A DNA stretch of 34,376 bases from Tepidisphaerales bacterium (GTDB taxonomy: Bacteria > Planctomycetota > Phycisphaerae > Tepidisphaerales > Tepidisphaeraceae): contig JBBRUM010000001.1 of NCBI GenBank assembly GCA_038247815.1, positions 1 through 34,376 of the forward strand. Direction: 5' to 3'. The translations under genes were made by a program, and so were the position numbers. The notes below the pieces were generated by a model. That model was not told the DNA's origin and did not search any database. It worked only from the letters and a program-made list of their open reading frames with translations. The first letter of the stretch is position 1. Every line of letters begins with the position of its first letter. Below are positions 1 to 30,310 of the stretch, piece by piece.

Positions 1-684
1 AGCTTCTACATTCCAACCACGCCCGACACGCTGTGCGGCGCCTGGATCGCCATCGACGACGTCGACGAGTACAATGGCGCGATGTGGTTCGCCAAGGGCA
101 GCGGCCACGAGCCGGTGTACCCCCCTTGCCCGGAAGTCGGCTATGGGTTCGGCGACAAACTCATCGGCGACATCCAGTACATCAAGGGCGTATCCGACGA
201 CCGCGACGAGCACAACCATCTCTCCCCCATCGCCGCCAACTACGACCAGTTGCTCGCCACGATGAGTGCCGGCGACGTCGCATTCTTCAACGGCCACGTC
301 CTTCACCGCAGCAAACGCAATATCACCAAGGACCGCTTCCGCCGGAGCTTCGTCGGGCACTATTGCAACGCCCGATCGTTTACGCAGTGGGGCGCTGACA
401 CGCAAGCCGGCAACGACCCCCACGCCGCGCCCACAATCGACGCCGTGACCAAATCGACCAACGCCAGCCACATCCTCGCCCGCGGCGACACCCACCTCCC
501 CTTCGCCCTCCCCCGATTCGGTACCCCCTGCGCCGCGTACCTCTCCCAAGCCGAACGCGCCAAACGCTGGGAATACGTCGCCCGAATGATCGCCCAAACG
601 GGCAACGGCCTCATGGGCTGCGCCATCGCCGACCCCACCGTAAAGCATGACCACGACGACGAGCCGAAAAGGGCGGGGTACTGA
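1..684 (+). CDS. Phytanoyl-CoA dioxygenase (PhyH)-family Fe(II)/2-oxoglutarate oxygenase, 5' end outside the window
   Basis: Frame 1 is open from base 1 (SFYIPTTPDTLCGAWIAIDDVDEYNGAMWF...) and runs into the listed 82..684 ORF. The AWIAIDDV..NG and FFNGHVLHRS..N motifs are typical of PhyH jelly-roll oxygenases. Stop TGA at 682-684. Confidence 0.7.
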   Translation, partial: SFYIPTTPDTLCGAWIAIDDVDEYNGAMWFAKGSGHEPVYPPCPEVGYGFGDKLIGDIQYIKGVSDDRDEHNHLSPIAANYDQLLATMSAGDVAFFNGHVLHRSKRNITKDRFRRSFVGHYCNARSFTQWGADTQAGNDPHAAPTIDAVTKSTNASHILARGDTHLPFALPRFGTPCAAYLSQAERAKRWEYVARMIAQTGNGLMGCAIADPTVKHDHDDEPKRAGY

Positions 685-711
685 GGCTCGGTCGTTGACT
701 CGGTCTACGCA

Positions 712-870
712 ACGGGGCACAGAGAGGGCAGAGGGCCGCGCCTACAGAGAAGGCGCGAGAGACAAATGCGAGTTCGGAAAAGCCAGGTCAGAGGTTCTTC
801 TGACACACGCAACTCGCCGTTGCTCTCCCCGCCTCGGTGAGCGAAGCCCTCCGCCTTCTCTGTGCCCCGT
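712..870. repeat. 25-nt imperfect inverted repeat (712-736 / 846-870) enclosing about 109 nt with nested hairpins; candidate structured RNA or REP/MITE-like element
   Basis: Hand pairing of the arms gives 23 Watson-Crick pairs, 1 G:T and 1 A/C mismatch over 25 positions. Inner hairpins: 737-757 (7 bp, loop ACAGAGA) and 768-817 (7 bp) containing 787-804 (6 bp). Only short mutually overlapping ORFs cover it. Confidence 0.5.
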
Positions 871-909
871 CGCCCCCCACGCTCGGAGGCTCCCACAAAC
901 GCACCCGCG

Positions 910-918
910 TGATATACT
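910..918 (+). promoter_or_regulatory. Extended -10-like box TGATATACT, 6 nt upstream of the gatB ATG
   Basis: TGnTATACT is read directly at 910-918. No good -35 box. The spacing would put the TSS at or next to the ATG at 925. Confidence 0.3.
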
Positions 919-924
919 CCCGAC

Positions 925-2388
925 ATGATTCGCAAATGCGTCAGCCACAAAGTGTTGGTGGGACTCGAGATCCACGTTCAGCTCGCCACCAAGAGCAAGA
1001 TGTTCACCGGGGCACTCAACGGGTTCGGCGGCGAGCCGAACTCGCAGGTCGACGAGGTCGTGCTCGGCTTGCCGGGGGTGTTGCCGGTGATGAACAAGAA
1101 GGCGGTCGAGTTTTCGATGATGGTGGGGCTAGCCCTGGGCTGCGAGATCGCCAAGCACACCAAATGGGACAGGAAGAGCTACTACTACCCCGATTTGCCG
1201 AAGAACTACCAGATTTCGCAGTATGACCTGCCGCTGTGCTTCGGGGGCCGGTTCGGCTTGGAGACGGAGGACGGGGTGAGGGAGATCCGCATCCGCCGCG
1301 CTCACCTTGAGGAAGACGCCGGAAAGCTCATGCACGAAGCCCCCGGCGGCTATCACATCGACTACTCCATCGTCGATCTCAACCGCGCCGGCACCCCCCT
1401 GCTCGAGATTGTCACCGAGCCGGACTTCGACTCGCCCAAAACCGTTTCCGCCTTCGCTCAGGAGCTCCAGAAGCTTGTGCAGTTTCTCGGCGTTTCCGAG
1501 GGCCAAATGCAAATGGGCCACATGCGATTCGAGCCGAACATCAACGTCCACATCACCGATCAGGACGGCAAAGTCCACAAAACCGCGATCACCGAAATCA
1601 AGAACCTCAACAGCTTCAGCGTGCTGGAGAAGGCGACGGCGTACGAGGTCGTGCGGCAGATCGCACAATGGGAGCAAACCGGCGACCTCGGCCGCAAGAG
1701 CACCTACGGCTGGGACGACGCCAAACAAGTCACCGTCCACCAACGCGACAAAGAAGAGGCCAACGACTACCGCTACTTCCCCGACCCCGACCTCGTTCCC
1801 GTCGAGGTCGGCGCGGAATGGCTTGCTGAGGTCAAAACGCGCGTCGGCGAACTCCCAGCCGCCCGTCGGCGAAGATACGTCGAGGTCCTCGGCCTTCCCC
1901 CGGCCGACGCCGTCATCCTCGCCGGAGACCGCGCCACCGGCGACTTCTACGAAGCCGCCCTCGCCGCCGGCGGCGAAGCCAAGCGCGTCAGCAACCTCAT
2001 CCTCAGCCACGGCCGCCGCCTCGCCAACGAGAAAGCCCGCCCCCTCGCCGACATCGGCATCGCCGCCGCACGATTCGCCGACGTCGCAAAATTGGTTGAC
2101 GCCGGCGCGATCACCGCCAGCAGCGCCGGCCCCCTCTTCGATAAACTCGCCCAAACAGACGCCAACCCCGCCGACCTCGCCCGGGAACTTGGCCTCGTCC
2201 TCAGCAACGACACCGCAGCCGTCGACACCGCCATCGACGCCCTCATCGCCGCCAACTCCAAACCCCTCCAAGACTTCCGCGGCGGCAAAGCCTCCGCCCT
2301 CGGTGCCCTCACCGGCATGGTGATGAAATCAGTCAGAGGCGCAAACCCGCAGGTGGTGCAGCAGAGGTTGAGGGAAAAGCTGGGCTGA
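925..2388 (+). CDS. gatB: Asp-tRNA(Asn)/Glu-tRNA(Gln) amidotransferase subunit B
   Basis: 487 aa. VGLEIHVQL, DLNRAGTPLLEIVTEPD and a C-terminal YqeY-like tail match the GatB layout. ATG start, TGA stop. Confidence 0.95.
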   Translation: MIRKCVSHKVLVGLEIHVQLATKSKMFTGALNGFGGEPNSQVDEVVLGLPGVLPVMNKKAVEFSMMVGLALGCEIAKHTKWDRKSYYYPDLPKNYQISQYDLPLCFGGRFGLETEDGVREIRIRRAHLEEDAGKLMHEAPGGYHIDYSIVDLNRAGTPLLEIVTEPDFDSPKTVSAFAQELQKLVQFLGVSEGQMQMGHMRFEPNINVHITDQDGKVHKTAITEIKNLNSFSVLEKATAYEVVRQIAQWEQTGDLGRKSTYGWDDAKQVTVHQRDKEEANDYRYFPDPDLVPVEVGAEWLAEVKTRVGELPAARRRRYVEVLGLPPADAVILAGDRATGDFYEAALAAGGEAKRVSNLILSHGRRLANEKARPLADIGIAAARFADVAKLVDAGAITASSAGPLFDKLAQTDANPADLARELGLVLSNDTAAVDTAIDALIAANSKPLQDFRGGKASALGALTGMVMKSVRGANPQVVQQRLREKLG

Positions 2389-2426
2389 GTCCGACCTAAC
2401 CTTCGCCCCGTTCAAGGTGAGGCCGG

Positions 2427-3893
2427 CTAGAACAGCTTGAGGTAAGGCAAATCCGATCGCCCCATCAGCGCCGTGTCGATGGCCTGCGCCGCTTGGCGGC
2501 CCTCCGAAATCGCCCAGACGACCAGCGACTGCCCGCGGCGCATGTCCCCGGCGGCGAAGACATCAGGGACACTGGTGGCGTAGTTCGCCCCGACCGCGAT
2601 GTTACCGCGTACGTCCAGCGCGAGACCCAGCTGCTCGACCATCCCCTCCTTCTCCGGCCCGGCGAATCCGATCGCCACAAGGCACAGGTCGCAGGGGATG
2701 TCGAACTCCGAATCCGGCGCCTCCACGGCCGTGCGACGGTCGAAGATGTTCTTGTACTCAAGCCGCGCGCAGCGGATCGCCTTCACGTTGCCGTGGCCGT
2801 CGTCGACGAAGTGCTTCGTGTGGATGGCCCACTCGCGGTTGCCGCCCTCCTCGTGCGCCGGCCAGGAATGCAGCTTCGCCGGCCAGTACGGCCAGGGGGC
2901 CATCTCAGCCGTGCGCTGCTCGGGCGGGCGGGGGTAAATATTGATCTGCGTCACCGAAGCCGCCTTCTGCCGGTGCGCGCTGCCCAGGCAGTCGGCTGCG
3001 GTGTCGCCGCCGCCGATGATCACGACGTTTTTCCCCTCGGCGTGGATGTGCTGTTGTTCGAAAATGACATCCCCGACGCTGCCGCCGAGGTTCTTCTTTG
3101 TCGGCTGGGGGAGATAGCTCATCGCCAGGTGAATGCCCTTGAGGTCCCTGCCGGGAATGTCGATGTCGCGCGCCTTGCACGCGCCGGCTGCCAGTAGAAC
3201 CGCGTCAAATTCGCGTCGCAGTTCGTCGACCGGCACGTTCACCCCGATGTTCGCGTGGCACTTGAACGTGATCCCCTCGGCTTCCATGAGCTTGATCCGC
3301 CGGTCCACCGTGCGCTTGTCCATTTTGAAATCCGGGATGCCGTACAGAAGCAATCCGCCCGGCCGGTCAGACCTCTCGAACACGGTCACCAAATGCCCGG
3401 CCCGGTTGAGCTGCTGCGCAGCCGCCAAACCCGTTGGCCCCGAGCCCACCACCGCCACCTTCTTCCCCGTACGCGAAGCCGGCGGCCGCGCCACGATCCA
3501 CCCCATCTCAAACCCCTTGTCCACGATCGCCTGCTCGATTGTTTTGATGGCCACCGGCTTGTCCGTGATCGCCAGTACGCACGCCTCCTCGCAGGGTGCC
3601 GGGCAGATCCGCCCCGTCCACTCCGGGAAGTTGTTCGTCGACAGCAGCGACTCCAGCGCCTCCCGCCACTGGCCCCGGTACACCAGGTCGTTCCAGTCCG
3701 GAATCTTGTTACCCAGGGGACACCCGTTGTTGCAAAAGGGGACGCCACAGTCCATGCACCGCGCGCCCTGCTCCTTCAGCGTCTTCTCCGACAGCGGAAG
3801 ATACACCTCCTCCCAGTCGAGAATGCGCAGCCCCACCGGGCGCCTCTTCGCGGTCTCGCGGGAGTATTCCTTGAATCCAGTCGGCTTACCCAT
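2427..3893 (-). CDS. gltD: Glutamate synthase (NADPH) small subunit
   Basis: 488 aa. MGKPTGFKEY N-terminus, CMDCGVPFC..GCP Fe-S cysteines, VVGSGPTGLAAA dinucleotide fold. Confidence 0.95.
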   Translation of the reverse strand: MGKPTGFKEYSRETAKRRPVGLRILDWEEVYLPLSEKTLKEQGARCMDCGVPFCNNGCPLGNKIPDWNDLVYRGQWREALESLLSTNNFPEWTGRICPAPCEEACVLAITDKPVAIKTIEQAIVDKGFEMGWIVARPPASRTGKKVAVVGSGPTGLAAAQQLNRAGHLVTVFERSDRPGGLLLYGIPDFKMDKRTVDRRIKLMEAEGITFKCHANIGVNVPVDELRREFDAVLLAAGACKARDIDIPGRDLKGIHLAMSYLPQPTKKNLGGSVGDVIFEQQHIHAEGKNVVIIGGGDTAADCLGSAHRQKAASVTQINIYPRPPEQRTAEMAPWPYWPAKLHSWPAHEEGGNREWAIHTKHFVDDGHGNVKAIRCARLEYKNIFDRRTAVEAPDSEFDIPCDLCLVAIGFAGPEKEGMVEQLGLALDVRGNIAVGANYATSVPDVFAAGDMRRGQSLVVWAISEGRQAAQAIDTALMGRSDLPYLKLF

Positions 3894-3910
3894 TATTCAA
3901 TTCCTTCAAC

Positions 3911-3939
3911 ACCGCAGAAGAACGCAGATCAACGCAGAT
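3911..3939. repeat. Distal arm of the inverted repeat bracketing the GxxExxY gene (tandem decamers ACCGCAGAAG-AACGCAGATC-AACGCAGAT)
   Basis: The reverse complement of 4314-4342 matches 3911-3939 at 25 of 29 positions (hand alignment; blocks of 8, 8 and 9 matches). Confidence 0.8.
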
Positions 3940-3951
3940 GGGGAAATCACG

Positions 3952-4347
3952 CTAAAAGTTACGGACAAATCGCTTCATTTCAACTTTCGGATTGGCAAAG
4001 TTCACCAGTAAACACACCTTGAGTCCGGACGCCTTCACGTAGTTGCAGCACTGGCCCGTGTGAACATCGTCGATGGCTTTTACAGTCTTGATCTTAACCA
4101 AGATCTCACCAGCTACCACAGGTTCCGCGAGATACTCGCCCATTGAAATCTCGTCATGGAAAATGTTGAACCTAGCCTGCTGTAACACCGCCAGACTCGC
4201 CTCTCGAAGTTCATCCGCCATCGAATTCTCGCACACTTTCTCCACAAAGCTGCACCCCAGCGTGTTGGACACCCTGAAGCTGCCCCCGACGATTGCTACC
4301 GTCAGCTCCGCCAATCTGCGTTCATCTGCGTGTATCTGCGGTTTCAT
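3952..4347 (-). CDS. GxxExxY-family PD-(D/E)XK-like small protein
   Basis: 131 aa. Its layout parallels the GxxExxY family: LGCSFVEKVCE (Tyr replaced by Cys), GEYLAE..., ILVKIKTVK, QCCNYVKASGLKVCLLVNF...KRFV. AGGAG lies 6 nt upstream of the ATG and overlaps the gltB stop codon. Confidence 0.8.
   Translation of the reverse strand: MKPQIHADERRLAELTVAIVGGSFRVSNTLGCSFVEKVCENSMADELREASLAVLQQARFNIFHDEISMGEYLAEPVVAGEILVKIKTVKAIDDVHTGQCCNYVKASGLKVCLLVNFANPKVEMKRFVRNF
4314..4342. repeat. Proximal arm of the inverted repeat, lying inside codons 3-12 of the GxxExxY gene
   Basis: ATCTGCGTTCATCTGCGTGTATCTGCGGT is the partner of 3911-3939. It encodes the PQIHADERRL N-terminus. Confidence 0.8.
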
Positions 4348-4355
4348 TTCTTCTC

Positions 4356-7300
4356 CTAAACCCCGACCTTCAGCTGCCCGGCTTCTTTGGCCCTGCGTTC
4401 GACCTCCGCCTGCTTCTCCAGTACGCGGCGGTAATCTTTCGGCATGACCTTCACGAACCAGCGCGATTCCCGCTCGAATTCATCGAGGATGTTCCTAGCC
4501 AGTGTCGAACCCGTGAACCGGTAGTGGTTGTCCAGCAGGCGGCGGAGTGTGTGCTCGTCGTCGGGCTGGTCTGGCTTGTCGAGGTCGACCATTTCGAGGT
4601 TGCAGAGTTTCGAGAACATGCCCCGGTCGTCGTAGACGTACGCGATCCCGCCGGACATCCCGGCCGCGAAGTTCCGCCCCGTGCCGCCGAGGATCACCAC
4701 GCGCCCGCCGGTCATGTATTCGCAGCCGTGGTCGCCGCACCCCTCGACCACCGCCGACGCGCCTGAGTTTCGCACGCAGAACCGCTCGCCCACCACCCCG
4801 CGCAGGTAAATCTCCCCCGACGTCGCGCCATACCCGATCACATTCCCCGCGATGATGTTCTCCTCCGGCCGGAACGTCGCCTCCCGCGCGGGATACACGA
4901 TCACCCTTCCGCCCGAGAGACCCTTTCCCACATAGTCGTTCGCGTCGCCCTCAAGTTCGAGCGTCACCCCGCGCGCAAGAAACGCCCCGAACGACTGCCC
5001 CGCGTGGCCGAGGAACTTGAACCGGATCAGGTCCTCGCCCGGCCCAGCCTGCGCCGGCTGAAGGCCCGCCTGCCCGTGCTTGGCCGCGATGCGCCCCGAG
5101 AGCATCGCCCCCACCGTGCGGTCAACGTTGGTGATCGCCAGCTCCGCCCGCACCGGCTTGCCTTTGTCGATCGCCGGCGCAGCCAGCTTGATCAGCTTGT
5201 TGTCCAGCGAATCCTTCAGTCCGTGGTCCTGCGCCATCACGCGCCGCGTCGCGGGTTTACGACGGCCCAGTCCCGCGGGGATCTCCGGCTGGGCGAGGAT
5301 CACCGACAGATCGAGGTGCTTGGCTTTCCAGTGCCCTGAGAGGTCTTCAATATCGAGCATGTCGCTCTTGCCCACCATGTCGTCCACCCGGCGAATCCCC
5401 AGCGACGCCATGATCTCCCTCAGCTCCTCGGCCACGAAGAACATGTAGTTGATCACGTGCTCCGGCTTGCCCTGGAACTTTTTCCGCAGCTCGGGGTCTT
5501 GCGTCGCGATCCCCACCGGGCAGGTGTTAAGGTGACACACCCGCATCATGATGCAGCCGGTGGCGATCAGCGGCGCCGTCGAAAACCCGACCTCCTCCGC
5601 CCCCAGCAAAAACGCGATCGCCACATCCCGCCCGGTCTTGATCTGCCCGTCGGTCTGCACCGTCACCCGCCCGCGCAGGTCGTTGAGCACCAGCGTCTGC
5701 TGCGTTTCCGCCAGCCCCAGCTCCCACGGCAACCCGCAGTATTTCAGGCTCGTCAGCGGCGCATTCCCCGTCCCCCCCCCGTCGCCCGAAACCAGGATAT
5801 GGTCGGCCTTCGCCTTCGCCACCCCCGCCGCCACCGTTCCCACTCCCACCTCCGACACCAGCTTCACCGAAATCCGCGCAGCCGGGTTGGCCACCTTCAA
5901 GTCGTGGATCAACTGCGCCAAGTCCTCGATCGAGTAAATGTCGTGGTGCGGCGGCGGCGAAATCAGCCCCACCCCCGGCGTCGAATACCTCAGCTTCCCG
6001 ATGTAGTCATCAACCTTGTTCCCAGCCAGTGCCCCGCCCTCTCCGGGCTTGGCCCCCTGCGCCATCTTGATCTGAATCTCATCCGCGTTCGTCAGATACT
6101 CTATGGTCACGCCGAACCGCCCCGAAGCCACCTGCTTGATCGCGCTCCGCCTCAGGTTCCCGTCCGCGTCGGGCTTGAACCGACGCGGATCCTCACCGCC
6201 CTCGCCCGTATTGCTCTTGCCGCCAATTCGGTTCATCGCAATCGCCAGCGTCTCGTGCGTCTCCGGCGACAGCGACCCCAGCGACATCGCCCCCGTGCAA
6301 AACCGTTTGACGATCTCCGTCGCCGGCTCGACCTCCGACAGCGGTACCGGCCCCTTTTCCGGCGCCCTGAACCGCATCAGCCCCCGCAGCGTGCACCGCG
6401 CAGTCGATTCGTCATTCACCAGCCGCGCAAAATCCCGGTACGTCGCCGCGCTCTCGATCCGCACCGCGTGCTGCAGCTTCGCGATCGTCTCCGGGTTGTA
6501 CTGGTGAAACTCCCCGTCCCGCCGCCATTGATACTGCCCCCCGTCGTCCAGCACGCCCCCCGACCCCTCGCCGTCCACCACGATCGGCGGATACCCCCGC
6601 CGATGACGCAGCAGCGACTCGGTGGCGATCACCTCAAGCCCAATCCCCCCGATCCGCGACGCCGTCCCGTTGAAGTACTGGTCGATCACGTCCCGGGCGA
6701 TCCCGATGGCTTCGAATATCTGCGCCCCCCGGTACGACTGCACCGTCGAAATCCCCATCTTCGACGCCACCTTCAAAATCGCCTTGTTCGCGGCTTTGAT
6801 GTAGTTCTTCTCGGCTTGCTCCAGCTCCAGCCCGTCCGGCAGCAGCGCCACCTTGTGCAGGTCCGCCAGCGTCTCAAACGCCAGGTACGGGTTCACCGCC
6901 CCGGCCCCGTATCCAATGAGCAAACAGAAGTGGTGCGCCTCCCGCGCCTCGCCCGTTTCCACCACCAGCCCCGCCTGCGTCCGCGTTCCCACACGCACCA
7001 GGTGATGGTGCACCGCAGCCGTCGCAAGCAACGACGGAATCGGCGCGTGCTCCGCGTCCACCCCGCGGTCCGAGAGAATCACAATCGTCACCCCCTCCTC
7101 CACCGCCTTCTCCGCCTGCATGCACAGCTCGTCCAGCGCACCCCGAAGCGCCCCCGGCCCCCCCGCCACCTCGAACAGCATCGGCAGCGTCCGCGACTTA
7201 AAGTCACCCGTCCGAACATCGCGCAACTTCTCCAGATCCTCGTTGGCCAGAATCGGGTACTTCAGCTTGATCAGGTGCGCCCCGCGCGGCTTCTCGTCCA

Positions 7301-23754: not shown

Positions 23755-26307
23755 TTACCGGGACCTCTTGCGGTTGTCCTTCGCCTTGGGCGCTGCAGCT
23801 CGCTTTTGCGAACTGGAGGTTTTGTTCTTGTCGGAAGTGCCGCTCTTCGCGGGCGCAGGTGGCTGTTTCGCGGTGGGTCCGCCACTGCGCCGACCACCTC
23901 CGCCTCCGCCTCCGCGATGGCCGCCACCACCCCCACCACTGCGGGGTCCGCCGCCGCCGCGACTCTCGCCACCACCGCCACCACCGCCACCTCTGCGGCC
24001 GCCACCGCCGCCACCGCCGCCGCCGCCTCGATTCCCACCCCCGCCGTTGCCCCCGCCTCGGCGGGGGTTTTGGTGGTTGGGGACGATGGCGATCTCTTCG
24101 CGGGTTAGCCGGCTGGTGAGTTCGGTGATAGACAGCGAGAGCTCCCGCCGGGCGGGGTCGACGCGGACGACGCGGGTGATGCAGGCGTCGCCGATGCCGA
24201 TGCGCTTTCCCGTTCGCTGGCCGCGGATCAGGCCGGCTTTCTCGTCGACATCCCACCAGTCGTCCATCAGGTCCTCGTAGCGGATGAGCCCCTCGATGAG
24301 ATATTCGGTGATCTGCACGAAGATTCCGAAGTTGGTGATTCCCGTGACGACGCCGGAGAACTCCTCCCCGATCTTGCCGGCCAGGAGGGTGAGGAGCTTG
24401 ACCTGCCGGAGCTCGCGTTCGGCGGCTTCGGCGCGGCGCTCGGTGAAGGACATGTGGCGGCCCTGGGTGACGAGGTCGTCGAACGACGGTACGTCGTCGA
24501 GGTTGACCTTCCCGCGCTTCCCGCCGGCGCCTTCGCGGGCGGTGATGTAGGCCTTGAGAAGCCGGTGGATCATCAAGTCCGCGTACCGGCGGATGGGCGA
24601 AGTGAAGTGCGTGTAGTGGTCAGACGCCAGGGCGTAGTGCCCGTCTACCTGCGGGGAATACTCCGCACGCGTAAGCGACTTGAGCACCGCGAGGTTGATC
24701 GCGTAGGCCTCGGGTCGGCCGCGGGTGGCAACCACCAGCGCCTGGATCGCGTGGCGATCCAGCACCTTGGGCAGCTTGTGCCCGGCGACGGTGACGAATT
24801 TCGTCAGCCGCTCGGAGTCGCGCAGGTCGGGCTCGGGGTGGATTCGGCGGATAAAGGGGACATCCAGCGAGTGCAGCAGTCGGGCGACAGCTTCGTTGGC
24901 TTCGACCATGAACATTTCGATAAGCGTGTGCGTGAAGGACGTGTCCTCGCGCTCGGTGCCGACGACCTTGCCGTCTTCGTCGAGCGTGAGTTGCACCTCG
25001 GGGAGGTCCAGCACGAGCTGCCCAGCCGCCAGGCGGCGCTTTTGAATCCTTTTGGCGAGCTGGTTCATGTCCATCAGCAGCTCGATGACCTCCGGCGCGT
25101 AGTCCGAGCGTTTCTTGGCCCCGTCGGGGTGGAAGATCTCGTCCCTGCCGTCGATGAGGTCTTGGGCTTCGCGGTAGCGCAGACGTTTGGCGGAGGTGAT
25201 GAGCGTTTCGGCGAACTTCGCGCTGGCGGGTTTCGAGTCGCGATCGAGCGTGATGAACGCGCTTTTGCACAAACGCGGTACGCCCTCCTGCAGCGAACAA
25301 ACGCCGTTGCTCAGCACCTCGGGGAGCATGGGAATCACGAACCCCGGGAAGTAGGTTGAGTTTCCGCGCTGCTTGGCTTCGACGTCCAGCGCCGAACCTT
25401 CTGTGACGAAGTGAGACACATCGGCGATGTGCACGCCGAGTTCGGTGCGTCCGTCGGCGAGTTTGCGGAGGGAGATCGCGTCGTCGTAGTCCTTGGCGTC
25501 GTCGGGGTCGATGGTGACCACGAGCTGGTCGGAGAGGTCGATGCGGCGCTGGCGTTCGAACTCGGGGTCGAAGCTTGCGGTGGCGGCGTGGGCGGCGGCT
25601 TTGACCTCCTCGGGGAACTCGCCGGGGAGGTTGTGCTGGATGATGACGGACCTGAGGTCGACGTCTTTCTCGCCGGCTGCGCCGAGGACCTCGATGATGA
25701 CGCCGACGGCTTCGCCGGCGCCCTCGGGATACTCGGTGATCTCGACGACGACCTTCGTGCCGGCGCGGATGTGCCGCGAGCCTGCGTCGGGGGTGGAGAT
25801 CGGTGCGGTCAGCGCGTTGCCGTCCGGCAGGACGTACCAGCGGTTTTGCACCTTGGTGAGTTCGCCGACGAACCGCGAGTTGCCGCGCTCCATGACCTCG
25901 ATGATCCGGCCGGAGTAGAGCGCCTTGCCGTCGCGCTCGCCGCGTGAGGCGATGATGGCGCGGACCTTGTCGCCGTTGAGCGCGCCGTTGTTCTCGCCGG
26001 GCGGGATGAACAGGTCTTCCTTGGCCGTCGGGTCCGACGGCGTGACGAAGCCAAAGCCCCGCCGGTTGTGCGAATAGGTTCCGATGAACCCGTCCGACTT
26101 TTCGTGCGAACCGGGGAGCACGAGGCATCCCCGCTGGCCGAGCACGACGCGACCCTGGTCCATGAGCGCGCGGAGCGCGTCGCGGAAAGTCGAATAGGCG
26201 TCGTCGGTGTGAAGTTCGAGGTCTCGGGCGAGGTTGCGCGGCTTGGCCGGCTGGTAGCGCTCGCTCTTGAGGTGGGAAAGGATACGTGACTGAATGGATT
26301 CTGACAT
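23755..26307 (-). CDS. rnr: Ribonuclease R (RNase II/VacB family) with a Gly/Arg-rich C-terminal tail
   Basis: N-terminal HTH, cold-shock-like domains, RNB motif IDPDDAKDYDDA, S1 domain GVVTGITNFGIFVQI, then about 100 aa of RGG-like and Lys-rich low complexity. Confidence 0.95.
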   Translation of the reverse strand: MSESIQSRILSHLKSERYQPAKPRNLARDLELHTDDAYSTFRDALRALMDQGRVVLGQRGCLVLPGSHEKSDGFIGTYSHNRRGFGFVTPSDPTAKEDLFIPPGENNGALNGDKVRAIIASRGERDGKALYSGRIIEVMERGNSRFVGELTKVQNRWYVLPDGNALTAPISTPDAGSRHIRAGTKVVVEITEYPEGAGEAVGVIIEVLGAAGEKDVDLRSVIIQHNLPGEFPEEVKAAAHAATASFDPEFERQRRIDLSDQLVVTIDPDDAKDYDDAISLRKLADGRTELGVHIADVSHFVTEGSALDVEAKQRGNSTYFPGFVIPMLPEVLSNGVCSLQEGVPRLCKSAFITLDRDSKPASAKFAETLITSAKRLRYREAQDLIDGRDEIFHPDGAKKRSDYAPEVIELLMDMNQLAKRIQKRRLAAGQLVLDLPEVQLTLDEDGKVVGTEREDTSFTHTLIEMFMVEANEAVARLLHSLDVPFIRRIHPEPDLRDSERLTKFVTVAGHKLPKVLDRHAIQALVVATRGRPEAYAINLAVLKSLTRAEYSPQVDGHYALASDHYTHFTSPIRRYADLMIHRLLKAYITAREGAGGKRGKVNLDDVPSFDDLVTQGRHMSFTERRAEAAERELRQVKLLTLLAGKIGEEFSGVVTGITNFGIFVQITEYLIEGLIRYEDLMDDWWDVDEKAGLIRGQRTGKRIGIGDACITRVVRVDPARRELSLSITELTSRLTREEIAIVPNHQNPRRGGGNGGGGNRGGGGGGGGGGRRGGGGGGGGESRGGGGPRSGGGGGGHRGGGGGGGRRSGGPTAKQPPAPAKSGTSDKNKTSSSQKRAAAPKAKDNRKRSR

Positions 26308-26587
26308 TCTGGGATCAATCTAACCGCGGAGGCGCGTAAATCGCGGCGGAAAAACAAAAGTTGCGCTGCAAAGCCCGCCCGCCGGGAACAGTTCCACGAT
26401 CGGGCGTTTGCGTCTCAGACGGCTTTGGTATGTGCTTGAAAAGGGTAGGAGCTTTGGGATAAAAGGGGAAACCAACGGGTTGATTCGGCCAGCCGGGTCA
26501 GGCCGGGCAGCCAAGGCGAGTGGAATTATGTCGTGAACACAGGCAAAGAGTGGTGGTGGGTGGGGAGGGGGTGAGACGAACCTGAGT

Positions 26588-26866
26588 TTACCGTCCGCCG
26601 GCGATCGCCGGGACGATGGAGATTTCGTCGCCATCTTTCAGGGGGGTCTCAAGATTCTTCAGGAAACGGACATCCTCGTCGTTGAGGTAGATGTTGACAT
26701 ATCGGTTCAATTGGCCCGGGGCTTTGAATAGCCTTGCTTCGATCCCGGCCGCCTTGCCCTTTAGCGATTCCAACGCCTCGCCTACCGTACCGCCGGCGGT
26801 TTCAATCGCGGCGGCTCCGTTGGTAAACATGCGAAGGGGGGACGGAATTCGGATCTTGATGGCCAT
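26588..26866 (-). CDS. CysO/MoaD/ThiS-family ubiquitin-like sulfur-carrier protein, C-terminus ...AIAGG-R
   Basis: 92 aa. IPSPLRMFTNG...VNIYLNDEDVRF...DGDEISIVPAIAGGR matches the CysO/MoaD beta-grasp pattern as I recall it. The start is set at the ATG at 26866. Confidence 0.85.
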   Translation of the reverse strand: MAIKIRIPSPLRMFTNGAAAIETAGGTVGEALESLKGKAAGIEARLFKAPGQLNRYVNIYLNDEDVRFLKNLETPLKDGDEISIVPAIAGGR

Positions 26867-26898
26867 TTTCTTACTTACTCTCCTCGGAAACATGCTAG

Positions 26899-27918
26899 TC
26901 ACCTTCGCTGCCCGGGGCTGCGCTGGCGACTCGTCAATTCGGTGATCAGGGCTTGCACGGTGTTGTCCCACGATTCCACACGCTCGCGCCTGCGGTCCCA
27001 GACCAGCCCCGACCCGTCCGCTCTCAGGCGAAACGGGTACTCATCGGATTCTACGCCGCGAAGTCGCTGAAGGTTCTGCACCACCAGTTGCAGCTCGTTC
27101 GCCGGGGCCGACACTGACCACGATCGGATGTCCGCCAGCGCGTTGTCACGCATCGCCTCCGACCGCCACCCCAGCTTCGCCCGCGCCGCAATCTCCTCGA
27201 ACGTCAGCACGTACTTCCCAGCCGACATCGGCAACCGCTCGATCAGCGCCTCCCGATACGAAAACACCGGCCTGTTGCTCTCAAACGCCTTGTCCGTCAC
27301 GTCGCGGAGCTTGTCGTTGGCTTGGTCTTCCGACCCCGGCCGAAGGCGACTGCCCATCGACTCGATCTCCGACCGTGTCCGCGGTTCCACAGCCGGGTTG
27401 ACCACGCCCGCCGGGGCGCGTTGGTACAGCGCCGCCAAACGCTGCACCGATTTCTCGTCCAGCGTCGCGGGCAACGCCGATAGCAATTGCCACTTCACGT
27501 ACGCGTCCGCCCGCGGGTTAGGCGAGTGCTTCGTGTCCAGCGCCCGCCACAACTGGTCCGCCGTCGGCTGAAGGTCGGCTTTTAGGAAAAAGTCGGGCCG
27601 GTTTCGCGCGAGCGTGCGGTTGGGTCCCTGCGACTCGTCGAACTCCTCGAGCAGCGCCTTCACCGACGCCGGAATCGGATTGGGGGCAGCCACCTCCGCC
27701 CCGCGGCGGGGGGCCTGAACGCGCGCATTTCGCGTCGCCGCAAGTCTCTCGGCCGGCACCGGACGGGTCGTAAGGGCGTCTGCGTTCCCCGGTCGACTGG
27801 CTGGCAGCGTCGTCGGCGTAGCGGTACCGTCCGGCCCCGCCTCCACCTGCCGAGCGCACACCCCCACCCCGCCCCCCAACACCGCCACCGCAAACACTTT
27901 CCAGCACACCATACTCAT
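26899..27918 (-). CDS. Hypothetical secreted protein (signal peptide, no recognisable domain)
   Basis: 339 aa. N-terminal hydrophobic signal MSMVCWKVFAVAVLGGGVGVCA. GAGAGAGG lies upstream of the ATG. Codon usage and GC3 look like those of the neighbouring genes. Confidence 0.6.
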   Translation of the reverse strand: MSMVCWKVFAVAVLGGGVGVCARQVEAGPDGTATPTTLPASRPGNADALTTRPVPAERLAATRNARVQAPRRGAEVAAPNPIPASVKALLEEFDESQGPNRTLARNRPDFFLKADLQPTADQLWRALDTKHSPNPRADAYVKWQLLSALPATLDEKSVQRLAALYQRAPAGVVNPAVEPRTRSEIESMGSRLRPGSEDQANDKLRDVTDKAFESNRPVFSYREALIERLPMSAGKYVLTFEEIAARAKLGWRSEAMRDNALADIRSWSVSAPANELQLVVQNLQRLRGVESDEYPFRLRADGSGLVWDRRRERVESWDNTVQALITELTSRQRSPGQRR

Positions 27919-27970
27919 CCCTCTCTCGCCAACGATCTTACATCAGATCGGCAATCGAGCGGCCCCCCGT

Positions 27971-29302
27971 TCATTGCTCGCCCGACGCGATGTGCGCCTG
28001 CACAGCCGAGAGCTTGGCGTCAATCACCTCCGGAAACGGCAACGCCCCGTTGACCGCTTCCAACGTCTTCAGCCCGTTTCCGGTAATACACAGCACAATC
28101 GCCTCGTCCTTGGGGATTTTCCCCTGCCCGAGCAGCTTCCGCAGCGCCGCCAGCGTCGTTCCTCCCGCCGGTTCCGTAAAAATCCCCTCCGTCCGGGCGA
28201 GCAAACCAATCGCGTCCACAATCTCATCGTCCGTCACCGATTCGCCGCCCCCGCCCGTCCGAGCCGCCACCCGCGCCACGTCGAACCCGTCCGCCGGGTT
28301 GCCGATCGCTATCGACCGGGCGATGGTGTTCGGCTTCTGTGGCGTGATCTCGTCGGTCCCATTGCGGATCGCGTCAATCACCGGATCGCACCCCGCCGCC
28401 TGCGCGCCCCAGAACCTGCACCCCGTGTCCTCCACCAGCCCAATCTCCACCAGCTCCCTAAACGCCTTGTCGATCTTCGGCAGAATCGTTCCCCCCGCCA
28501 CCGGACACACGATGTGCTTCGGCAATCTCCACCCGAGCTGCTCCGCGATCTCAAACCCGAACGTCTTCGCCCCCTCCGTGTAATACGGCCGAAGGTTTAC
28601 GTTCACAATCGCCCACCCGTAGTGGTCCGCCACCTGCGTACACAGCCGGTTCACATCGTCATACGTCCCCCGCACCCGCACCACCTTCGGCCCAAACACC
28701 AGCGACCCCAGCACCTTCCCCTGCTCCAAATCGTGCGGAATAAACACCACGCACTTCAGCCCCGCAGCCGCCGCATGCGCCGCCACCGAGTTCGCCAGGT
28801 TCCCCGTCGACGCACACCCCACCGTGTCAAACCCGAACTCCACCGCCTTCGACAACGCCACCGACACCACCCGCTCCTTGTACGACCACGTCGGGTAGTT
28901 CGCGGAATCGTCCTTGATGAACAGCTCGCTGCACCCGAGGTACTTGGCCAGCCGGTTCGCCCGCCGCAGCGGAGTCAGTCCCGAATCGAACCCCGTCACC
29001 GGCGTGGCCACGGGGAGCAGATCCTTGTACCGCCACAGGTTCCGTGGCCCGGCTTCGATCGACTCCCGCGTGACGTAACTCCGCAGCAGCTCGTAGTCGT
29101 ACTCCACCTCCAACGGCCCGAAGCACTCCGGGCACACGTGCAGCGCCTCGGCCGGGGTGCGATGACCACACTCCTTGCACTTCAAGCCAACAACGGCCGT
29201 CGCCGGTTTAAAACGGGTTGACCGCGCCACCACATCAGCGGCAGCCGGCGTCGGGATCTTCGCGGTAACAGCAATAACTGACGAGGAAAGAGTCGCAGAC
29301 AC
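27971..29302 (-). CDS. Threonine synthase homologue (fold-type II PLP enzyme) with an N-terminal Cys4 zinc ribbon; possibly MetM-like
   Basis: 443 aa. CKECGH...CPECFG zinc ribbon, PLP-lysine motif PTWSYKERV, GNLANS, AGGT. GTG start at 29302 with GGAGG about 7 nt upstream. Confidence 0.9.
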   Translation of the reverse strand: MSATLSSSVIAVTAKIPTPAAADVVARSTRFKPATAVVGLKCKECGHRTPAEALHVCPECFGPLEVEYDYELLRSYVTRESIEAGPRNLWRYKDLLPVATPVTGFDSGLTPLRRANRLAKYLGCSELFIKDDSANYPTWSYKERVVSVALSKAVEFGFDTVGCASTGNLANSVAAHAAAAGLKCVVFIPHDLEQGKVLGSLVFGPKVVRVRGTYDDVNRLCTQVADHYGWAIVNVNLRPYYTEGAKTFGFEIAEQLGWRLPKHIVCPVAGGTILPKIDKAFRELVEIGLVEDTGCRFWGAQAAGCDPVIDAIRNGTDEITPQKPNTIARSIAIGNPADGFDVARVAARTGGGGESVTDDEIVDAIGLLARTEGIFTEPAGGTTLAALRKLLGQGKIPKDEAIVLCITGNGLKTLEAVNGALPFPEVIDAKLSAVQAHIASGEQ

Positions 29303-29330
29303 GAAAGGCCTCCGGGGTGGGTCCCAGTTG

Positions 29331-29359
29331 CGAAAACGCCTCTTCCGTTAGGAAGAGGC
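29331..29359 (-). terminator. Intrinsic terminator forming the expression platform of the SAM riboswitch
   Basis: The minus-strand RNA reads GCCUCUUCC-UAAC-GGAAGAGGC followed by GUUUUC. This is a 9-bp stem (29338-29359) about 30 nt upstream of the GTG start. Confidence 0.6.
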
Positions 29360-29432
29360 CGCAGGGAACGTCCCACACGGATCCCACCGATTTCTCGGTG
29401 AGGTGATCGCCAAATCCGGCGACTCACCCTCA

Positions 29433-29572
29433 TCCTTATCTTCCCCACTCGCATCAGCCCTTTCGGGAAATTGCGGCGGGAGGGAGTTAGCACCTTCGAC
29501 CCGGGGGGTTTCCCCGGACTGGGTTGCTGTGGTGTCTGCGGGCCCTAGACCCTCGACCACTCTGGATAAGAA
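29433..29572 (-). promoter_or_regulatory. SAM-I (S-box) riboswitch aptamer
   Basis: The minus-strand RNA reads UUCUUAUCCAGAGUGGUCGAGGGUCUAGGGCCCGCAGACACCACAGCAACC...GGUGCUAACUCC...GAAGAUAAGGA. It matches the conserved S-box core (CUUAUC.AGAG.GG..GAGGG...GGCCC...GA..CC..GCAACC ... GGUGCUAA.UCC ... AGAUAAG) with P1 CUUAUC/GAUAAG. Confidence 0.85.
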
Positions 29573-29594
29573 GGCATCTTCAATTGTCGAACAC

Positions 29595-29623
29595 ATTGTT
29601 CATATGAGATCCCGGTCAGTCAA
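29595..29623 (-). promoter_or_regulatory. Putative promoter of the riboswitch transcript (TTGACT-17 nt-AACAAT)
   Basis: On the minus strand, TTGACT is at 29623-29618, the spacer is 17 nt, and AACAAT is at 29600-29595, about 20 nt upstream of the P1 stem. Confidence 0.35.
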
Positions 29624-29722
29624 GTCCCAATCCCGCACTTTTGCCGGTTCGTCTCATCCCGCACCCTGCTCCCGCGGCCGGACTGTTCCGCCCATCTCTC
29701 GTACCCTCTCCCGCTCTTGCCT

Positions 29723-29786
29723 CCGACCGGTAGGGCGTCCGACCGGTAGGCCGCCCGACCGGTAGGGCCTCCGACCGGTAGGGGGG
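29723..29786. repeat. Four tandem 16-bp units CCGACCGGTAGG+NNNN (12-bp quasi-palindrome around ACCGGT)
   Basis: The units start at 29723, 29739, 29755 and 29771. The 12-nt core is identical in all four and only the 4-nt linker varies (GCGT, CCGC, GCCT, GGGG). Confidence 0.9.
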
Positions 29787-29824
29787 CGAACGCTGGAACA
29801 ACGTCAGCTTAGGGTGACTCTCAC

Positions 29825-30310
29825 ATGGTTATCGGCGTCCTCTCCGACACACACGACCGCGTCCCCGAAACCCGGGCAGCCGTTGCCCTGCTCCTCCGCC
29901 ACGGCGCCAAAGCCCTCATCCACTGCGGCGACCTCACCGGCCAGGACGTCGTCGATTGCCTCGTCGGCGAAGTCCCCGCCTACTTCGTCTTCGGCAACAA
30001 CGACTGGGACCGCGACGGCCTCGCCCGGTACGCCGCCGATCTCGGCGTGACCTGCCTGGGCACCTACGGAGTAATCGACCTCGGGGGCAGGAAGATCGGC
30101 GTCGCCCACGGCGATGTTCTCCGCCCGTTGACCGAACTCGAAGACACCCCCGACCTGCGGTACCTCCTCTCCGGCCACACCCATGTCTCCGACGACGAAT
30201 CCGACGGACTCCTCCGCCGCGTCAACCCCGGCGCCCTGCACCGCACCCGCCAAAAGAGTGTCTGCACCATCGACCTAGCAGCCGACGCCGTGCGTTTTCA
30301 CCTTCTATGA
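29825..30310 (+). CDS. YfcE/MJ0936-family metallophosphoesterase
   Basis: VLSDTHD, HCGDL, FGNND, AHGD, SGHTH motifs in the canonical order. Confidence 0.85.
   Translation: MVIGVLSDTHDRVPETRAAVALLLRHGAKALIHCGDLTGQDVVDCLVGEVPAYFVFGNNDWDRDGLARYAADLGVTCLGTYGVIDLGGRKIGVAHGDVLRPLTELEDTPDLRYLLSGHTHVSDDESDGLLRRVNPGALHRTRQKSVCTIDLAADAVRFHLL

Follow-up and report, generated by a model that had tools for sequence, protein, structure and literature searches.

The 34,376-nucleotide stretch analyzed here (hereafter, the window) comes from a Tepidisphaerales bacterium of the phylum Planctomycetota (contig JBBRUM010000001.1) and carries, on its minus strand, a riboswitch responsive by family to S-adenosylmethionine (SAM), followed by a gene for a ThrC-like enzyme, an inserted open reading frame (ORF) and a gene for a small sulfur-carrier protein. 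Taken together, the riboswitch, the two protein families and the conservation of their arrangement among relatives indicate that this is probably a SAM-repressed operon of the MetM/MetO type, which would provide a thiocarboxylate route to homocysteine in the Tepidisphaerales. The features of the module are collected in Table 1.

Table 1. Features of the riboswitch-headed module, in order of transcription; positions are those of the window.
Feature	Position	Strand	Basis or remark
Promoter-like site TTGACT-17 nt-AACAAT	29595-29623	minus	sigma-70-like consensus match only
SAM-I (S-box) riboswitch aptamer	29433-29572	minus	Rfam RF00162, full model 1-108
Linker between P1 and terminator, with two extra hairpins	29360-29432	minus	nascent-transcript folding
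Terminator-like hairpin GCCUCUUCC-UAAC-GGAAGAGGC, then GUUUUCG	29331-29359	minus	folding
Zinc-ribbon ThrC-family pyridoxal phosphate (PLP) enzyme, 443 residues, candidate MetM-type homocysteine synthase	27971-29302	minus	GTG start
ORF of 339 residues, lineage-specific insert that separates the enzyme gene from the carrier gene	26899-27918	minus	no family match
CysO/MetO-like ThiS/MoaD sulfur-carrier protein, 92 residues	26588-26866	minus	PF02597, E = 6.6e-15

The leader of the thrC-like gene matched the Rfam SAM-I family over the full length of the model. The original prediction had placed a SAM-I riboswitch at this site and had proposed a covariance search to verify it; that search returned a score of 63.1 bits, above the gathering score of 44.4 (E = 1.4e-12), and the match was the only one to any Rfam family across the whole 34-kb window. 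All of the S-box core strings quoted in the prediction were present in the leader. The P1 helix of the aptamer is formed by UUCUUAUC and GAUAAGGA, and its P3 and P4 loops are enlarged. Judged by this match, the element preceding the thrC-like gene is a genuine SAM-I riboswitch, and it is predicted to bind SAM. The promoter-like site upstream agrees with the consensus at 9 of 12 positions and is the sole such site on the minus strand within 26300-29900. Transcription from it would start near position 29590, approximately 10–20 nucleotides upstream of the aptamer.

The gene that follows encodes a protein with a PALP fold (PF00291, E = 8e-69) and an N-terminal four-cysteine ribbon (CKEC...CPEC); conservation is poor over approximately the first 30 residues. 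The conserved PLP lysine lies in the segment SYKERV and aligned with the PLP lysine of solved ThrCs. The best relatives of solved structure are bacterial threonine synthases with 35–39% identity, as compared with 52% identity to a riboswitch-linked paralogue from the actinomycete Nonomuraea gerenzanensis, which is described below. We aligned the carrier-linked clade to which the window protein belongs against four solved ThrCs, and neither the window protein nor the clade retained the canonical motifs. Where the solved enzymes have STGNT, the carrier-linked clade has STGNL; N-SVNPxR is replaced by NVNLRPYY, GNAGN by AGGT or ASGS, and KDRG by KERV or KDRV. In the T. thermophilus structures, these segments would surround the substrate phosphate and the PLP phosphate. 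By these sequence comparisons, the carrier-linked ThrC subfamily is clearly separated from the solved threonine synthases. We also considered the zinc ribbon as a marker for MetM and rejected it: ribbon-bearing ThrC homologues (35–39% identity) occur in haloarchaea and Chloroflexota with no adjoining carrier gene, so that its presence does not by itself identify a MetM.

Among proteins of solved structure, the carrier is closest to a ThiS/MoaD protein (4n6e_B, E = 1.5e-22) and to M. tuberculosis CysO (3dwg_C, E = 5.8e-21). Its conserved start is MAIKIRIP at 26866, and a longer ORF call, starting at 26971, is overextended. The protein ends in AIAGG-R, with a single residue (Arg) past the Gly-Gly. 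Among the carriers of 61 relatives, 40 end exactly at GG, and the rest (approximately 20) have short tails of variable sequence after it, which fits a carrier trimmed by a protease. The carrier gene starts 1105 nucleotides past the thrC-like stop codon and on the same strand, so the predicted linkage of a ThrC homologue to a co-oriented CysO-like gene 1.1 kb downstream holds for the window. The intergenic gaps are short: 52 nucleotides separate the enzyme gene from the inserted ORF, and 32 nucleotides separate the inserted ORF from the carrier gene. Because a generic terminator scan found no terminator-like site on the minus strand between the three genes, it is plausible that they are co-transcribed.

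We examined the conservation of this arrangement by scanning relatives at one genome per species, which yielded 80 loci, all from Tepidisphaerales or other Phycisphaerae, whose enzyme orthologues show 66–80% identity. In the 11 loci scanned first, Rfam identified the riboswitch every time. A strict core motif located it in 74 of the 80 loci, and Rfam recovered it in four of the six that the motif missed, the other two being cut off upstream; in all, 78 of the 78 loci whose upstream DNA is long enough carry the riboswitch ahead of the enzyme orthologue, and the Rfam scans detected it in 17 of the 17 loci with upstream DNA to which they were applied. In 61 of the 80 loci, the enzyme gene is followed on its own strand by a carrier gene. 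The gap between enzyme and carrier is 7–150 nucleotides in about 30 of them and 600–5400 nucleotides, filled with assorted ORFs, in the rest. The constancy of the riboswitch and the presence of the carrier at a variable distance point to an ancestral order of riboswitch, enzyme and carrier, in which the spacer between the two genes would have received inserted genes.

This spacer is an insertion hot spot in its own right. The inserts, which span 0.6–5.4 kb, encode DUF4058 and DUF4304 proteins, an HNH-like ORF, and membrane and secreted proteins; examples are found at 1547-5455 in locus L002, 7188-12578 in L022 and 11263-14581 in L086.

The same architecture is present in a second phylum. In Nonomuraea gerenzanensis, a SAM-I riboswitch (68.7 bits) is followed by a zinc-ribbon ThrC homologue, the paralogue mentioned above, and then by a 91-residue carrier ending in GG, which shares 43% identity with the carrier of the window. 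The same chromosome carries a canonical thrC 9 Mb away; its product is 64.6% identical to M. tuberculosis ThrC, and it adjoins a GHMP-kinase gene, forming a thrC-thrB pair. The riboswitch-linked copy in Nonomuraea is therefore an extra paralogue and not the housekeeping enzyme. In a protein search from this paralogue, the best 120 matches were all from Streptosporangiales, and a representative search with cluster look-up returned mostly unnamed metagenome proteins and one Micromonosporaceae entry. The sequence record itself (NZ_LT559118), which is filed as a plasmid in PLSDB, is 11.85 Mb long, evidently a chromosome, and almost unannotated.

A module of this composition has been characterized in Streptomyces albulus. 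According to GapMind 2026, the ThrC homologue MetM converts O-phosphohomoserine to homocysteine with the thiocarboxylated carrier MetO as the sulfur donor, and carrier maturation additionally depends on the ligase MoeZ and the hydrolase Mec. The same source states that MetM is often misannotated as threonine synthase and that thrC models also capture MetM (GapMind 2026). Published figures put the identity to MetM at 51.6% for a cyanobacterial homologue and at 33% for B. subtilis ThrC. The original prediction had supposed that riboswitch control of such a pair was undescribed. This part of it was not supported: PMC12172450, citing Hasebe et al. 2024 (AEM 90:e01247-24), states that a SAM riboswitch lies upstream of S. 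albulus metM, and Nonomuraea has the same module. Its central proposal, that the genes form a methionine module and not a housekeeping threonine synthase locus, gains support from the carrier linkage, the separation of the subfamily and the Nonomuraea paralogue.

For the substrate, the product, the sulfur donor and the termination read-out, we infer the following course of events. With SAM bound, P1 would be held closed, the hairpin at 29359-29338 would form, and transcription would stop before the coding region. At low SAM, the P1 3' strand, together with the bases just after it, would pair with the 5' arm of the hairpin, and polymerase would read into the three closely spaced genes. The ThrC-like enzyme would then take O-phosphohomoserine and replace its phosphate with sulfur from the carrier thiocarboxylate rather than with water, and the product would be homocysteine instead of threonine. 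To enter this reaction, the carrier would have the Arg after its Gly-Gly removed and its end adenylated and sulfurated by enzymes encoded elsewhere, whose counterparts in Streptomyces are a MoeZ-type E1 and a Mec-type JAMM protease.

Folding of the leaders bears on the first two of these steps. The leaders of the relatives have the classical S-box terminator/antiterminator design. Of 75 leaders, 64 contain a hairpin that is located 20–35 nucleotides after P1 and is followed by at least 5 T within 9 nucleotides. Its 5' arm in relatives (CCUCUUCUUAUC) is a copy of the 5' strand of P1, and therefore the 3' strand of P1 can pair with this arm instead. The mean energy of this antiterminator duplex is −11.8 kcal/mol, as compared with −6.0 kcal/mol for shuffled arms. 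The window and its closest relative (L001) keep both the hairpin and the complementarity, with a longer linker and a weaker U-run. In the window, the hairpin has a stem of 9 bp with a free energy of −15.7 kcal/mol, the GUUUUCG tract occupies 29337-29331, and 30 nucleotides separate the end of the U-run from the GTG start codon (29302), which is preceded by GGAGG at a spacing of 6 nucleotides. The prediction of a 9-bp hairpin and GUUUUC about 30 nucleotides before the GTG was accurate in coordinates and distances. Folding was also consistent with its S-box antiterminator logic, in that pairing of the P1 3' region with the 5' arm of the terminator (−15.3 to −17.2 kcal/mol) is more stable than pairing with shuffled arms (approximately −9 kcal/mol). 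The 5' part of the linker (AGGAUGAGGG) is able to pair with the terminator 5' arm and so form an antiterminator in these folds.

Three features of the window leader speak against termination there. The U-run, which is the weak point of the predicted hairpin, consists of just 4 U, and the hairpin was missed by the generic terminator scan. The gap between P1 and the terminator is long (approximately 75 nucleotides): the linker measures 73 nucleotides in the window and approximately 92 nucleotides in L001, about three times its length in most relatives (20–35 nucleotides). Finally, the difference in stability between the terminator and antiterminator folds is 12 kcal/mol, in favor of the former. 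Because of the short U-run, the long linker and this energetic bias, the switching mode is uncertain in the window leader; termination is likely to be the read-out, with less certainty than in the relatives. The same features could be explained by a riboswitch that is real but no longer acts via termination here, working instead through translation or RNA stability, or being constitutively off or leaky. A precedent for the first of these may exist in Nonomuraea, where the SAM-I aptamer (L081 4843-4998) ends 14 nucleotides before the MetM-like start codon, a position which implies translational rather than transcriptional control. We nevertheless consider loss of termination in the window unlikely. 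Both the window and L001 have kept the hairpin along with its complementarity to the 3' region of P1, and the Shine-Dalgarno sequence, located 17 nucleotides past the U-run, does not pair with the aptamer in any of the folds. In addition, GC-rich bacteria often terminate transcription at short U-runs.

Many of the relatives also have long, near-perfect palindromes between the terminator and the start codon, as seen in L010 (~5935-6030), L024, L049, L051 and L061. These are composed of short G/T-rich repeats, for example AGTGGAGAGTGGACAGT...ACTGTCCACTCTCCACT, and resemble repetitive extragenic palindromic (REP)-like or miniature inverted-repeat transposable element (MITE)-like sequences. No such palindrome is present in the leader of the window.

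Several observations weigh against assigning the module to homocysteine synthesis. The ThrC-like protein scores 266 bits with the threonine synthase model TIGR00260, above its cut-off of 167.1, and just misses PRK08197 (300.7 bits against 303); its six best NCBIfam matches are threonine synthase models, and every database name among its relatives is "threonine synthase." A cyanobacterial MetM homologue encoded beside a metO-like gene is reported to have threonine synthase and threonine deaminase activity. Orthology to S. albulus MetM/MetO would rest on the Nonomuraea intermediate, with its identical architecture. The NIL-domain gene that accompanies the module in many relatives (see below) is missing from the window, where a six-frame profile search gave a best E value of 0.66. 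Neither an E1 nor a JAMM gene was found in the 34-kb window, or within 10 kb in four relatives, and the flanks of those four, read for up to 10 kb on either side of the enzyme gene, also contained no second thrC and no met genes. E1 and JAMM genes are unlinked in other such systems too.

The model scores, the database names and the cyanobacterial activity are what would be expected if the gene encoded a threonine synthase, or a bifunctional threonine/homocysteine synthase, and the riboswitch balanced the branches at the O-phosphohomoserine node. This is the main rival to a methionine module, and we judge it improbable. Repressing threonine synthesis when SAM is high would be the wrong direction for balancing the branches, and the Gly-Gly sulfur carrier to which the enzyme gene is conservedly linked has no role in threonine synthesis. 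The enzyme is distant from the solved ThrCs, and motifs kept in all four of those aligned are altered in it. Furthermore, the Nonomuraea module coexists with a canonical thrC-thrB pair, and no hom or thrB gene lies within the window. The least credible alternative is that O-phosphoserine is the substrate and that the pair, as an analogue of CysM/CysO with a ThrC-fold enzyme, produces cysteine or a different thiol amino acid: CysO is among the closest solved relatives of the carrier, ThrC-family enzymes that use O-phosphoserine exist (e.g., cysteate synthase), and SAM-I riboswitches control cysteine-related genes in some bacteria, but the cysteate synthase model scored 63.7 bits against a cut-off of 324.9, no cysteine synthase model appeared among the 25 families listed of the 49 matching, the NIL domain that accompanies the module in relatives is suggestive of methionine, and the only ThrC-homologue/carrier pair under a SAM riboswitch known to have been characterized makes homocysteine.

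This NIL domain is encoded by a standalone gene (PF09383, 48 bits, approximately 82–85 residues) that follows the carrier gene in 50 of the 80 loci and, in 40 of these 50, starts no more than 300 nucleotides past the carrier's end. The protein ends in ..VEPIEKSV.EG (for example, L044 7738-7992, L062 7622-7858 and L086 15687-15944), and in L080 the NIL domain is apparently fused to the carrier. Besides the window, L001 and the Nonomuraea locus also lack the gene. The NIL protein showed a weak match in the Protein Data Bank (PDB) to the methionine importer MetN, and the NIL-ferredoxin protein of the DUF39 homocysteine pathway contains such a domain as well; these ties to methionine transport and homocysteine synthesis support a methionine role for the module. 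The protein may, for example, be a partner that senses methionine or homocysteine, or an adaptor in sulfur relay. We tentatively raise the possibility that MetM/MetO in the Tepidisphaerales is a three-part system with the NIL protein as its third member, and that the lineage of the window lost or moved the NIL gene and gained an exported helical ORF; we consider this less likely than not. The accounts of Streptomyces MetM/MetO consulted (PMC12172450; GapMind 2026) mention no NIL partner.

The inserted ORF matched no Pfam or NCBIfam family. Its own family comprises ten proteins among 5.8 billion searched, all of them hypothetical and lineage-restricted, which share the common motif RADAYVKWQLLS and have hydrophobic, signal-like N-termini, as read from the sequences. 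AlphaFold2 confidently modeled an all-helical domain (mean predicted local distance difference test score 79.6), for which the PDB holds no match among solved folds (best E = 0.058, template modeling score below 0.3). A homologue is present in 19 of the 80 loci and always directly precedes the carrier gene, including in loci where several kb separate it from the enzyme gene. The description of this ORF as an unrelated secreted protein inserted between the two genes agrees with its signal-like N-terminus and its lineage-specific occurrence. We considered the ORF as a stand-in for the NIL protein, the E1 or the JAMM protease and rejected these candidates on account of the signal-like N-terminus and the unrelated helical fold. 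Most likely, it encodes an exported passenger, the result of an old insertion, with no role in the chemistry.

Elsewhere in the window are genes for RNase R, glutamate synthase and GatB, along with others unrelated to the module. The RNase R gene (23755-26307, minus strand) is downstream of the carrier gene, and its product has a long Gly/Arg-rich C-terminal tail (GGGNGGGGNRGGGGGGGGGGRRGGGG...). An RNase R gene is also found after the module in 19 of the 80 relatives, a case of shared synteny. Upstream, the riboswitch promoter and a metallophosphoesterase gene diverge, and in the intergenic region between them a 16-bp unit is repeated 3.9 times (29722-29783); its core, CCTACCGGTCGG, occurs in four exact copies, as compared with 0.27 expected. 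This repeat is absent from all 89 loci that were fetched.

The MetM/MetO-type system is already known from Streptomyces albulus (2024), and the present example is real but not new in kind; no part of these findings overturns current understanding. What is new is the phylum, the terminator platform, the lineage-specific and probably exported ORF between the genes, and the NIL gene in relatives, whose conservation offers a lead, open to testing, toward an accessory pathway component. These data would extend a methionine pathway described in 2024 from actinomycetes to an order of soil and peat Planctomycetota that is mostly uncultured, and would correct the annotation "threonine synthase," which is probably wrong across the database entries seen. 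They also bear on predicting whether Tepidisphaerales need external methionine. The approximately 80 leaders constitute a clean comparative set for a single aptamer family that is coupled to a terminator in one phylum and apparently acts at the start codon in another.

Similar to the S. albulus system, the module of the window combines a ThrC homologue with a small Gly-Gly carrier, has a SAM riboswitch upstream of the enzyme gene, and is annotated as threonine synthase; the need for a carrier protease in that system fits the Arg after the Gly-Gly here. In contrast to it, the window's module belongs to Planctomycetota and not Actinomycetota, has a putatively exported ORF between its genes, and has relatives with a NIL gene. 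The expression platforms differ as well: a terminator in the lineage of the window, as opposed to an aptamer abutting the start codon in the actinomycete Nonomuraea. In this respect, the planctomycete leaders resemble the S-box leaders of methionine genes in Bacillus, which have the same aptamer family and the same logic of a copied P1 5' strand and an antiterminator, although the phylum and the controlled genes are different and the window leader has a long linker and a short U-run. M. tuberculosis CysM/CysO, with MoeZ and Mec, likewise pairs a fold-type II PLP enzyme with a thiocarboxylated ThiS/MoaD-type sulfide donor and acts on a phosphorylated hydroxy-amino acid. However, the enzyme of the window is of the ThrC branch and not the CysK/CysM branch, its regulator is a SAM riboswitch, and its substrate would be O-phosphohomoserine. 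A protein thiocarboxylate is also the sulfur donor for homocysteine in Wolinella succinogenes, which uses HcyS, HcyD and HcyF together with MetY (Krishnamoorthy and Begley 2011, cited in PMC5764234). The condensing enzyme there is not a ThrC homologue but an O-acetylhomoserine sulfhydrylase of fold type I, and its substrate is O-acetylhomoserine. The Wolinella carrier is reportedly made with an extra C-terminal residue that is removed by a JAMM-type protease, similar to the Gly-Gly-Arg end of the carrier in the window.

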